From Escherichia phage DCP2: a DNA stretch of 64,000 bases. The stretch lies in sequence record OR780565.1; one strand, given 5' to 3'. Shown in pieces: positions 36,448-40,211 of this stretch. A model generated the notes under the pieces. It did not search any database. It was not told the DNA's origin and saw nothing but the letters and a program-made list of their open reading frames with translations. Every line of letters starts with the position of its first letter. Position 1 is the first letter of the stretch. A program made the translations under genes and the position numbers.

Positions 36448-37242
36448 TTATACTCTTGGACCATATATTGCTCCAACATTTTGCCATGTCGGTGTAGACC
36501 CTATGACGGCATAACCAGCAGCTCCGCCATCGTATTCATATCCTTGACCACGAATATTACATCTACCTCCTGCGGAGCCAACTTCACCACCAGACCCGCC
36601 GTTGTAGATACCGTTCACAGACCCTGCGCCTGGCGAAGAAATAGTACCAGCAGTTGCTCCTGATTGCATATCAATAGATCCGCCCGGTGCGCCAAACGGA
36701 CGACCGCCGCCACCGCCAAAGGTCAATCTCATTCGTGAAAAAGGAGAATAATACCCGCCGCCGCCACCGCCGCCGCCGCCAGCAATAGCTCCGCCATTAT
36801 TAATTCTTAGTCTCCCACCAATATCATTTTGAATACAATGACCCCCAGCTGAGCCAGGACTATTGCTACCGCCATTCCCGCCACGGCCATACATCGTTAC
36901 ACCATGTATGTTCAACTGAACATATTCATTCGGTGTATCTCCGTACATGAAGAATAAAGGAACATCTTTAGAATATGATACTAAATCTCCAGTGATATTA
37001 AACACTATAGGTGCACTACCTGCCTCAAAACATCTATCTCGGAACCATTGACCATTGAAGTTATGGTCTGCTCCAAGCGTGTGAATAATTTCTCTTGAGC
37101 GACCTGCAAATTGACTCATCCAGCAAGGAACACCCAATCTTAATTGACCAGCCGCTTGACTCATCCATCGTTGTCCTGTTTCATTTACAGATGAACTTCC
37201 AATCCAACCGGGAACACCAACTACTGCCATAATTTTCTCCAA
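36448..37242 (-). CDS. 38: gp38 tail-fibre adhesin, T2-type with glycine-rich motifs
   Basis: 264 aa; conserved N-terminal part then poly-Gly runs ([23 protein letters not shown]) separating variable segments. Confidence 0.85.
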
Positions 37243-37262
37243 AGGGGCAAAGCCCCTTGTTG

Positions 37263-40211
37263 TTAGAATTTAAAATAATTACTAATTTTGCGAGCAATTT
37301 TAGTGAAGAAAGGCGTTTTCAATTCTTTAATTTCTTCACTCATTTCCTGAATAGCCTTAATTAAAAGAGCATTCACAGCAGAGTTAGAAATTGTCAGAAC
37401 ATCAGATCCATCAACTTCAACTTTAGATACAGCTTCCGGTAATTCCTTTTCAAGGTCCTGAGCAATAATACCAACTTCACGTTTAATAACACTACGGTCT
37501 TTAATAGACTTAACTTTATCGTAAATATAAACTTTCAGTCGGCAAACTTTTTCGACCGCTCCATATTCTAATTCTTCTTTATTAATCTTGAGACGGGAGT
37601 CAGAACGAATATACACATCGCTAAAGCTACCATTTCCTGGTGTATAAAAGAATCCATCATGATGGAATTCAAACACAGCTTGTGGGTGTCCAGCATCAGG
37701 AGAAGCCTCCGTGGATCCGACACGAATGATTGCTTGCCCCCACTGTGATGGAATACGACGCATACCAAAGTCAACAGCGGTGCTATATCCTTGATTGGTT
37801 ATAACGCTTCTTGCTTTAAGAATAGGATAATAACAATCCTGTGAAACATAACCATGATCAACGAATAATGGAGCTTCTACTCGCCATTGGTTGCCCCAAT
37901 CACCCGGTTGTCTAGCAATCCATCCAGAACCGTTAATGTGTACACGATCGCGGTTAACGTTAACCATTGCGATATTTTGTGGATTTAGCGAAATCTCACC
38001 ATTGTTTGTGATATGTACTGCCGCCTGAGTAGCATAGCTATAAAATGCTAGCGAATTATCAGCACCACCCTTACCAATATACCAGTTACCAGTCCCGTCT
38101 ATATCACCGCGAATATGCAAAGAATTACTAGCAGTTGTTGATAATACAATAGCATCATTAGGTGTATTGATTGTTAACCGACCTGTCATCGTATCACCGC
38201 TTTTACCTACGCGAGTATTCAAAGCAGCGTCTAAGTTGGTTGCATTGTTGTATTTCTTCCAGATTGAACCAGCAATGTTACCATCAGTGTTCAAGAATGC
38301 TGCGCCAGCATAAACTCGGCTTTGTGACATGAATCGGCCAGACGGCAAGAAACGCCATGTAGCTAATTCATTAGCTGTAGTTCCAGTAGCGGATAAATCA
38401 CCTTGAGCAATGATACGATATTCTGAACTAGCAATATCCATACCAGAAGCCATAGTAATATTTGTTACAGTGTTTTTCTGTTTTACAATAGGAGCAAACT
38501 GGTTTTTATTTGAATCGTCAATGGCCTGATATAATGGCGCAATAGTAGTATTCTGATTTGCGTAAGTATTTGAACCAGAACCGCTAGCAGGGCCTTGAAT
38601 ATATGCTCCAGGAGCAATTGAAATTTTCTTATTAGCACCAAGATTAATATCAGCGGTGATATTTAGCAATCCCCTAAAGTTTTGTTGAGCAGTCCAAGTA
38701 TGTGATCCGTCTTCAAGAACAACACGGCGACAAGTGTTAGTCCTGTTTCCTGGATTTCCAGCTATACGCACAACAAAATAACGGTAGTTTGTCTGGGATA
38801 CAGTACCACGCCAAACCTGAACAGTACGTCCTGTGCCAGTATGTTCGCTAGGACCAACAGAAAACATAATTAAGTTTCCGTCAATCGTACCCCAATTCAT
38901 ATTTGCTGGCATGTTCTTTATTTTGTTCAAAGGAACGCTAAACATACTACCAGGGACAAAATCAAAGGTTTGCCAATCTAACTCCGCTAATTGAGCTTTA
39001 ATACCACCCATACCCAAAGTAATTGGCAGAGAATAAGATGTATATACTTCGTTCCATGCACCCCACGCACCACCAGTATATGCACGCTCAAAAATACGAT
39101 CGCGAGTAGTTGCACCCGTTCCTGCGGTAGTGAAACGTTGGAAAATAGCACCGCCAGAAGCACGCTGTTTAACTTCCAGCAAACCAACAATAACAGTCGG
39201 CAAACCTTCACCTGTAGGACAGTTAATAACGGCATCAGTGCCTAAAATATTATATAACCCGGGAGTTTTAAAATCATTCAGATCTCCATCATAGAAAGTC
39301 GCTGGTGTGCCATGACCAACCTGCTTCCATTCCTCCCACTTAGGTGCACTAGCATCCCATGCAGCAGCGAGACAACGAGTATAAACCATACCCATGCGGG
39401 TAGTATAACGCTGAGTTCTCGCGTATAAACCACCTTCAAATATTTCTAAAAATCCTTGTGCGGCTGATCCTTCTTCTGGATAATGGCGATCAAATGATGC
39501 GATTGCGCTTGAACTGTTTCGCCATAAGCCACAATGTTCTAACTCTCCCAAGCTATCAAGGTCAATCGTTTGTGAAAGTGGACGAGTTGACGCTTGAACA
39601 TTACGCCACACACCCCATGGACCATCGACGCCATTCCATTTAGCAGATAAGGAACGAATATAGACGTTACCAGATCTTACAGTATAACGCTGAGTGCCAG
39701 CAAATTGGCCGGCCACAAACACTTCTAGTACACCTACGGCATTTTCTTCTGGGAATTTATTTGCTGGTTGCGCATTTGTTGAAGTAGATTTCGACCAAAC
39801 ACCAAGATATTCTTCAATGGGCCCATACGTATCTAAATTAGCATCAGTAGGTAATTCGCCATTATTTTTTATAAATGTTGTGCTATTGACATTTATGTCA
39901 GATGGAGTTAAGGTAATGTCCTTTGACCCATCAAAAGATATACCATTAATTTTCCTAGGTGTTTGCAATTTAGTAGCTGTGCTAGAATTTCCAATTAAAG
40001 TTCCAGTTATATTTTCTGTAACCTCTAAAGACCCATTTATAGTTCCTCCATATTTTAAACCTAATTCTATAACACTACCTGAGTCATCTTTTGTGAAAAT
40101 TGTTTTATCTTTTAAGTTTATAGCCAATTCACCTTCGGCTAATACTGAAGCAGCAGGACGTTGACCTGCAGTTTTGCTTCTTTTAAATTGTATTTGTTTT
40201 AAAGTAGCCAT
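37263..40211 (-). CDS. 37: gp37 long tail fibre distal subunit
   Basis: 982 aa; C-terminal region with SDSRLK and [15 protein letters not shown], resembling the intramolecular-chaperone domain of T2-type gp37. Confidence 0.85.

Follow-up and report, generated by a model that had tools for sequence, protein, structure and literature searches.

The window analysed here is a stretch of 64,000 nucleotides from Escherichia phage DCP2 (record OR780565.1), and the genes of interest lie on its minus strand (Table 1). Gene order is g34-g35-g36-g37-g38-t-asiA, matching T4, T6 and T2. Gene 36 is upstream of gene 37, and gp36 is annotated at the same position in WilhelmHis, T6 and T4. Gene 38 sits between gene 37 on its upstream side and the holin gene t on its downstream side (35761-36417; Phage_holin_T, 1.8e-117), as it also does in T6, T2 and WilhelmHis. 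A TATAAATA box, located after a terminator-like hairpin (40908-40929) and upstream of gene 36, presumably drives g36, g37 and g38 as one late operon. Such boxes are not enriched in the 64-kb window (five observed vs nine expected by chance), and those upstream of g36 and g34 would be meaningful only through their position and by analogy with T4. Plus-strand open reading frames of 60-156 aa within g37 and g38 were regarded as antisense artefacts, given the strong support for the coding region in which they lie.

Table 1. Features of the g36-g37-g38 region, in window coordinates; residue numbers of gp38 count from the ATG.
Feature	Position	Strand	Basis or remarks
Gene 38, monomeric tail-fibre tip adhesin gp38	36448..37230	-	260 aa from ATG (most likely start), stop codon included
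gp38 N-terminal attachment domain, aa 1-46	37093..37230	-	Pfam Gp38_N
gp38 specificity domain, aa 115-239	36514..36888	-	five GRMs separated by HVS1-4
GRMs of gp38			GRM1 115-121, GRM2 146-159, GRM3 172-184, GRM4 211-222, GRM5 235-239
R166 codon in HVS2	36733..36735	-	Q in most T6-type alleles; equals PST '167R'
g37-g38 intergenic spacer	37231..37262	-	hairpin AAGGGGC-ttt-GCCCCTT at 37242-37258, then GGAG
Gene 37, gp37 precursor	37263..40211	-	open reading frame of 982 aa, stop codon included
gp37 intramolecular chaperone, aa 870-982 (113 aa)	37266..37604	-	Peptidase_S74; S870/K875
Predicted mature gp37, aa 1-869, ending FSDVYIR	37605..40211	-	homology with S16 and fPS phages
gp37 N-terminal 64 aa	40020..40211	-	75% identity to T4 gp37 1-64, E 3e-26
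Gene 36, distal hinge connector gp36	40220..40870	-	open reading frame and Pfam Phage_T4_gp36
T4-type late promoter box TATAAATA	40894..40901	-	pattern match, upstream of g36

What type of protein is gp38? The Pfam models GP38 (PF05268; E 4.1e-71, 239.7 bits) and Gp38_N (PF21721; E 1.3e-19, 70.3 bits) both score above their cut-off of 25, and PHROG 2056, 'tail fiber protein; host specificity', matches at 3.5e-112. The best solved match is the crystal structure of PP01 gp38 (PDB 9v85; E 1.6e-80), and S16 gp38 (6F45_D) aligns with residues 9-261 of the 264-aa open reading frame at E 7.6e-49. The N-terminal attachment region that the first-pass annotation had proposed is borne out by the Gp38_N match and by three conserved tryptophans: W9, W22 and W37 align with the three tryptophans of S16 gp38 that dock the adhesin onto the tip of the gp37 trimer (PMC6851490). 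Poly-glycine runs separating variable segments, also proposed, were located as five glycine-rich motifs (GRMs) and four hypervariable segments (HVSs), a layout defined for gp38 adhesins in PMC3157838; across 13 gp38 alleles, GRM1-5 are invariant and the HVSs variable. Glycine makes up 34% of residues 115-260 vs 11% of residues 1-114, the glycine-rich half includes runs of nine and five glycines, and at the DNA level these runs coincide with a local rise in G+C to 0.496 (background about 0.31-0.41). Full-length matches to two solved adhesins suggest that gp38 may adopt a polyglycine-II sandwich fold. Assignment of gp38 to the T2/T6/S16-type adhesins, and not to the T4-type chaperones, is supported at the sequence level.

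Because T4 has the same gene order, one can ask whether the fibre tip might be arranged as in that phage, with gp37 binding the receptor and gp38 serving only as an assembly chaperone absent from virions. However, BLASTP found no similarity between gp38 and T4 gp38 (best E 2.0), whereas gp38 matches adhesin families and, over its full length, the solved PP01 and S16 adhesins; the distinction from T4 gp38 that had been drawn earlier holds. DCP2 gp37 matches T4 gp37 strongly over aa 1-64 only, with weak central segments in addition, and nothing significant in it aligned with the receptor-binding C-terminus of T4 gp37 (approximately 800-1026). A T4-type tip is refuted at the sequence level, and its likelihood is close to nil.

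The gene 38 reading frame spans 36448..37242 (minus strand) and encodes 264 aa if begun at TTG 37242. The frame given in the first-pass annotation is thus present, but the 264-aa length it reported is probably too long: translation most likely begins at ATG 37230, with a product of 260 aa. The ATG is preferred because the TTG falls in the 3' arm of a hairpin, directly 5' of a GGAG Shine-Dalgarno sequence (37237-37240, six bases ahead of the ATG), and because it is the 260-aa form that is on record; that exact protein is already in the public collection. In five of six records examined gp38 is annotated from MAVVG, the PST record carrying the longer open reading frame. The spacer hairpin has a folding energy of -13 kcal/mol and a z score of -1.2, indistinguishable from shuffled sequences; the fPS-65 record labels the equivalent spot a terminator.

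The gp37 protein matches PHROG 1699, 'long tail fiber protein distal subunit' (4e-203), and carries the Pfam gp37_trimer domain at aa 693-744. Its exact 982-aa sequence is likewise in the public collection, and it is 90-100% identical to WilhelmHis gp37 in each 50-aa block. From what is known of T4, the N-terminal 64 aa may form the junction with gp36.

At the other end of gp37, the first-pass annotation had pointed to two motifs in a 982-aa protein and to a resemblance with self-cleaving intramolecular chaperones. Both motifs were located, SDSRLK at 870-875 and a 15-residue segment at 914-928 that contains GIIAQD (914-919). The role of the Ser/Lys dyad in S-D-x-R-x-K comes from endosialidase chaperone domains. 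A Peptidase_S74 match over aa 870-928 (E 6e-10, 39.7 bits; gathering cut-off 22), together with the catalytic Ser/Lys motif, supports the resemblance. The region aligns with the S16 gp37 chaperone (6F45_A), SDSRLK falling on the S-D-R-R-I-K of S16. When the PDB was searched with the chaperone region by phmmer (E up to 10), the S16 chaperone (E 1e-3) and the tail fibre entry 8jov (E 0.07) were found and no endosialidase or T5 pb1 entry; the remaining hits were noise. A single-sequence AlphaFold2 model of aa 837-982 is mostly helical past the putative cleavage site, at a mean pLDDT of 52.1 that is too low for a fold search.

Cleavage of gp37 at DVYIR^SDSRLK is predicted by homology with S16 and the fPS phages, whose sites are DLNVS^SDRRIKK and DVYIR^SDGRLKI, respectively (PMC7917993); a DVYIR^SD(G/S)RLK site has already been discussed for the fPS phages in that paper. 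The S16 chaperone, also of 113 aa, is autocleaved and is absent from the gp37-gp38 interface (PMC7917993). T2 gp37 carries VYIRSDIRLK, and its C-terminal processing was reported by Drexler et al. (1986), as cited in PMC3157838. By analogy, DCP2 gp37 probably cleaves off its C-terminal folding domain, and the last strand of the mature protein would form the docking face for gp38. Could the domain instead be an uncleaved remnant that is kept on the fibre, with gp38 docking elsewhere or only transiently? The Peptidase_S74 match spans just aa 870-928 of the 113-aa tail, which leans that way, but the Ser/Lys and GIIAQ motifs are intact, the chaperone is conserved in 75 full-length relatives and lies in a segment (aa 851-982) that is 100% identical to T6, and the S16 and T2 homologues are the processed ones cited above. 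Retention of the domain is very improbable, and self-cleavage is the reading followed below.

That receptor specificity resides in the variable segments of gp38, as had been concluded from the letters of the DNA, is experimentally established for the family (PMC3157838; PMC12032242; bioRxiv 10.64898/2026.04.02.716166). An alignment of these segments with adhesins of known specificity, the check that had been proposed, was carried out and places the DCP2 allele in the Tsx group. It included alleles with proven Tsx use (T6, RB5, RB14, Bas35 and CM8), further T6-type alleles (UGKSEcP2, PST and fPS-65) and representatives of other receptor classes, namely RB32 (OmpA), RB51 (OmpF), PP01 (OmpC) and T2 (FadL). 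The C-terminal domain of gp38 is 97% identical to that of RB5, 96% to RB14 and 95% to CM8, Bas35 and T6; the values for RB32, RB51, PP01 and T2 are 58%, 46%, 58% and 50%, respectively. Identity to the T6-type alleles is 100% in HVS1, 83-92% in HVS2, 85-96% in HVS3 and 83-100% in HVS4, and HVS2-4 are just 0-33% identical to the OmpA, OmpF, OmpC and FadL alleles. T6, RB5, RB14, Bas35 and CM8 depend on Tsx (PMC3157838; PMC8594841; bioRxiv 10.64898/2026.04.02.716166). Since DCP2 gp38 carries the loops of the T6/RB5/Bas35/CM8 alleles, Tsx, an outer-membrane nucleoside channel, is its most likely primary receptor on E. coli.

The loops do carry substitutions. There are five loop or near-loop differences from RB5, the nearest Tsx-proven allele, and these include Q166R, which is common to PST. 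The same architecture might therefore have a shifted or broadened specificity, i.e. Tsx plus OmpA or LPS, or a Yersinia receptor, through R166 in HVS2, S199/A202 in HVS3, S213, and Y231 in HVS4. R166 is the residue at PST '167R'; the PST residues 167R, 168I and 208I are implicated in plating on Yersinia, T6 plated better on that host with the HVS2 changes 167R/168I alone, and PST itself depends on Tsx and OmpA together on E. coli (PMC3157838). A single substitution in a loop can suffice for a receptor switch, as RB68 Q206L changes the receptor from OmpF to OmpW (bioRxiv 10.64898/2026.04.02.716166). In addition, the near-identical adhesin of fPS-65, 95% identical to DCP2 gp38 in the specificity domain, serves a phage that infects Yersinia, which has no Tsx, by an LPS-core-dependent route (PMC7917993; PMC3157838). 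On the other hand, only one of the three PST changes is found in DCP2 gp38 (168I and 208I are absent), A202 and T246 are also present in the Tsx-dependent RB5, and the T6-like alleles tested on E. coli all recognise Tsx (PMC3157838). The R166 variant ('SRM') recurs in HP3.1, PM123 and one Shigella-labelled record, the first two being ordinary E. coli phages. An altered specificity is thus unlikely, though it has more in its favour than the two alternatives considered above; if true, DCP2 gp38 would represent a natural intermediate step between the host ranges of T6 and PST.

The RB68-type switches, the differences from RB5 and the host of fPS-65 are observations that all weigh against certainty in the Tsx assignment.

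The locus very probably encodes the receptor-recognition module at the distal end of a Tequatrovirus long tail fibre of the T6 subtype, with predicted self-cleavage of gp37, a gp38 cap and Tsx binding, and no feature in the sequence contradicts this explanation. Genes, domain memberships, motifs and allele group are shown by the sequence itself; cleavage, capping and Tsx binding are predicted from characterised homologues. The annotated phage collection, the PDB, Pfam and published work together gave this answer unambiguously. How might the module work? By analogy with the characterised systems, gp37 would be made as a 982-aa precursor and would trimerise assisted by its C-terminal Peptidase_S74 chaperone of 113 aa, which may then cut itself off between R869 and S870 by means of the Ser870/Lys875 pair. 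The cut would expose a flat trimeric gp37 tip ending in DVYIR. One gp38 molecule (260 aa) would cap the gp37 trimer, in a predicted 3:1 ratio, with W9, W22 and W37 of its helical N-terminal domain entering three equivalent pockets. In the C-terminal half of gp38, the GRMs are expected to fold into a polyglycine-II sandwich that leaves the hypervariable loops facing the cell surface, where these loops, of the T6/RB5/Bas35/CM8 group, would bind Tsx on E. coli.

As a discovery the module carries little weight. It is a textbook T-even adhesin module, present in 75 phage records with 80% or more of its length covered, and it is already known: its architecture, its processing and the prediction of receptors from gp38 have all been published, and both exact proteins are deposited. 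Its value lies in annotation. A T6-type gp38 label with Tsx as predicted primary receptor helps when phages are selected or combined for typing or therapy, and the gp38 start codon and gp37 maturation site can be annotated correctly.

Comparison with known systems defines the place of the module. With the Peptidase_S74 chaperones of K1F endoNF and T5 pb1, gp37 shares the C-terminal position of the domain, the Ser...Lys pair, the G-x-IAQ motif and a Pfam match above threshold; the resemblance to those proteins follows from the family assignment. Closer is the S16 gp37-gp38 pair (PDB 6F45; Dunne et al., 2018), in which the GRMs form a polyglycine-II sandwich. Here gp38 aligns over its full length with the three tryptophans and the GRMs conserved, and the gp37 chaperones correspond motif by motif (SDRRIKK in S16 vs SDSRLKI in DCP2, and GLIAQEVE vs GIIAQDLE). 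S16 differs in having other loops, directed at Salmonella OmpC, and a gp37 shaft that is unrelated before the last five residues (PMC7917993). The receptor-binding domain of PP01 gp38 (PDB 9v85; mBio 2026, PMC12892980) has a nearly identical beta-helix region and the same GRMs, but its HVS2-4 are 0-33% identical to those of DCP2 and it binds OmpC of E. coli O157 (PMC12892980).

The T2 gp37-gp38 pair, a FadL/OmpF adhesin, shares the two-protein architecture, the GRM/HVS layout and the VYIRSD.RLK motif. Nevertheless, its HVS2-4 are unrelated to those of DCP2 (0-23%) and its gp37 is 14-50% identical past the first 50 aa. The 'T2-type' label of the first-pass annotation can therefore be retained as a class name and not as a statement of nearest relative, as gp38 shares 93% identity with its T6 counterpart and 53% with that of T2; judged by sequence, the module belongs to the T6 type, not the T2 type. 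The length of gp37 is 982 aa in DCP2 vs 994 in T6 and 1341 in T2. T6, together with RB5, RB14, Bas35/WilhelmHis and CM8, has the same gene order, a gp38 that is 93-98% identical overall and four HVSs that are essentially those of DCP2, differing at a few loop positions (R166, S199, A202, S213, Y231 and T246 in DCP2). A mosaic block at aa 501-700 of DCP2 gp37 has diverged from T6 (12-50% identity); the chaperone and the last approximately 130 aa are identical to those of T6.

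On sequence comparison, the gp37-gp38 module of Escherichia phage DCP2 (distal long tail fibre subunit and fibre-tip adhesin) is of the T6 type, and the predicted primary receptor is most likely Tsx. ORF calling places both genes in a T-even late block of canonical order, g34-g35-g36-g37-g38-t, in which g34 encodes 1289 aa, and it returns exactly the g37 and g38 coordinates of the first-pass annotation; Pfam profiles bear out the identities of gp36, gp37, gp38 and the T holin (E 1.8e-117). The Pfam ILEI domain (interleukin-like EMT inducer/PANDER-like) is matched in gp35, the proximal hinge connector (E 5e-8; 33.8 bits, cut-off 27).

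Where does g38 begin? The 264 aa first assigned to gp38 hold for the ORF from TTG, but the start is most likely the ATG at 37230, a four-codon correction giving 260 aa. The TTG at 37242 is rejected because it forms part of a hairpin's 3' arm and is directly 5' of GGAG, the ribosome-binding site six bases ahead of the ATG, and because annotations favour the shorter form: among six annotated records compared, five open gp38 with MAVVG (the sixth, Yersinia phage PST, has a longer annotated ORF), and the public protein collection holds the exact gp38 as 260 aa. The fold energy of this hairpin is not significantly better than that of shuffles (z -1.2). The record of Yersinia phage fPS-65 annotates a terminator at this spot.

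Features of the tail fibre locus (GRM, glycine-rich motif; HVS, hypervariable segment)
Feature	Window	Strand	Residues	Remark
Late block g34 to t	35761-45926	minus
g38 ORF	36448..37242	minus		264 aa from TTG
gp38 GRM1-5		minus	115-121, 146-159, 172-184, 211-222, 235-239	separate four HVSs
Hairpin AAGGGGC-ttt-GCCCCTT	37242-37258	minus		GC-rich, between g37 stop and g38 ribosome-binding site
g37	37263..40211	minus		ORF, 982 aa
gp37 mosaic block	38112-38711	minus	501-700	block-wise identity
gp37 tandem copies	39318-39842	minus	~124-298	~85-aa domain
T4-type late promoter box TATAAATA	40894-40901	minus		between g35 and g36, directly after the hairpin at 40908-40929
Terminator-like hairpin	40908-40929	minus		between g35 and g36
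gp35	40933-42048	minus	58-113	ILEI match
Second late promoter box	45961-45968	minus		just upstream of g34

The module signal is more than chance. Two Pfam profiles hit gp38, GP38 (E 4.1e-71) and Gp38_N (E 1.3e-19), and two solved structures match it essentially over its full length: PDB 9v85, a GFP fusion of a gp38 receptor-binding domain (E 1.6e-80) identified as that of phage PP01 by a 100% tblastn match (PMC12892980), and 6F45 chain D (E 7.6e-49), the corresponding protein of Salmonella phage S16. S16 gp38 inserts into its gp37 trimer through three docking tryptophans (PMC6851490), and alignment finds them conserved as W9, W22 and W37. With Gp38_N, the HVSs and the five glycine-rich motifs in the scheme of Trojet et al. 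(PMC3157838), they bear out the attachment region and interspersed glycine runs first proposed. Glycine makes up 34% of the C-terminal 146 residues, with runs of nine and five, vs 11% of the N-terminal part, and this accounts for a local G+C peak of 0.496. In Shigella phage CM8 Leu replaces the third docking tryptophan (W37), yet the phage is functional and Tsx-dependent (bioRxiv 10.64898/2026.04.02.716166).

Identity of gp38 to adhesins of other phages
Phage	Receptor	Overall	Residues 115-260 (specificity domain)
UGKSEcP2		99%	99%
RB5	Tsx	98%	97%
RB14	Tsx	97%	96%
CM8	Tsx	96%	95%
WilhelmHis (Bas35)	Tsx	94%	95%
T6	Tsx	93%	95%
T2	FadL	53%	50%
RB32	OmpA/LPS		58%
PP01	OmpC		58%
RB51	OmpF		46%

Comparison with adhesins of known specificity places gp38 in the Tsx group (95-97%, vs 46-58% for others); HVS2-4 of RB32, PP01, T2 and RB51 are only 0-33% identical. 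The "T2-type" reading stands as an interpretation, with its subtype sharpened to T6. Tsx dependence was shown experimentally for T6, RB5 and RB14 (PMC3157838), Bas35 (PMC8594841) and CM8, and two recent studies show gp38 phylogeny to be predictive of the receptor (PMC12032242; bioRxiv 10.64898/2026.04.02.716166); together these point to Tsx. Could specificity have shifted or broadened beyond it? Residue 166 in HVS2 is R (Q in most T6-like alleles), as in PST, a phage that makes use of Tsx as well as OmpA and in which the residue is termed 167R; the HVS2 changes 167R/168I of PST improved T6 plating on Yersinia (PMC3157838). Moreover, fPS-65, 95% identical in the specificity domain, infects Yersinia by an LPS-core-dependent route (PMC7917993), and one loop substitution in RB68 switches receptor outright (bioRxiv 10.64898/2026.04.02.716166). 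However, only one of the three PST changes is present and the "SRM" variant recurs in ordinary E. coli phages, so that such a shift is quite improbable.

A T6-type module with Tsx as predicted receptor also agrees with gp37, which is 90-100% identical to that of WilhelmHis in every 50-aa block. Across residues 501-700 identity to T6 and fPS-65 falls to 12-50%, with flanks mostly >90%, which indicates recombinational exchange in the shaft. Nearer the N-terminus are two clear tandem copies of a domain (local alignment score 159, shuffle maximum 45) and a possible third, weak copy (~341-395); the PHROG "tail collar fiber protein" spans 112-326.

Besides Pfam gp37_trimer, gp37 matches Peptidase_S74 at 870-928 (E 6e-10; 39.7 bits, cut-off 22). 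This domain opens with SDSRLK (870-875), and the 15-residue stretch first noted lies at 914-928; the domain aligns with the S16 chaperone (SDRRIKK and GLIAQEVE in 6F45_A). The last 113 residues form a predicted intramolecular chaperone, in keeping with the self-cleaving-like domain first described. S16 gp37 sheds its final 113 residues by autocleavage at DLNVS^SDRRIKK, which bares the gp38 docking face, and equivalent cleavage is argued for DVYIR^SDGRLKI of fPS Yersinia phages (PMC7917993). The corresponding site here is DVYIR^SDSRLKI, so by homology mature gp37 should comprise residues 1-869. A single-sequence AlphaFold model of the region is too poor to contribute (pLDDT 52).

The module is already known. 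Phage records matching the region number 630, 75 of them covering at least 80% of it, and Escherichia phages a51 and P922 are closest (97.1%). Exact gp37 and gp38 both occur on a public 167,751-bp contig, and the gp38 90%-identity cluster has 155 members. Its representative, PJZ22119.1, "receptor-recognizing protein [Bacillus cereus]" on a contig of ~171 kb, presumably reflects contamination of a bacterial assembly by a T-even phage. The two-protein architecture, polyglycine sandwich, tryptophan docking, gp37 chaperone and cleavage, and receptor prediction from HVSs are all published. The first-pass observation is confirmed, and its interpretation is supported and can be narrowed to a T6-type, probably Tsx-binding module. 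T4 differs: only the first 64 residues of gp37 are strongly like T4 gp37 (75%), whose receptor-binding C-terminus has no counterpart here, and gp38, as first proposed, is unlike the T4 gp38 chaperone (no similarity, best E 2.0) and matches adhesin families and solved adhesins. T2 gp37, whose C-terminal processing Drexler et al. described in 1986 (as cited in PMC3157838), carries VYIRSDIRLK vs DVYIRSDSRLK here, and the T6 chaperone region is 100% identical.
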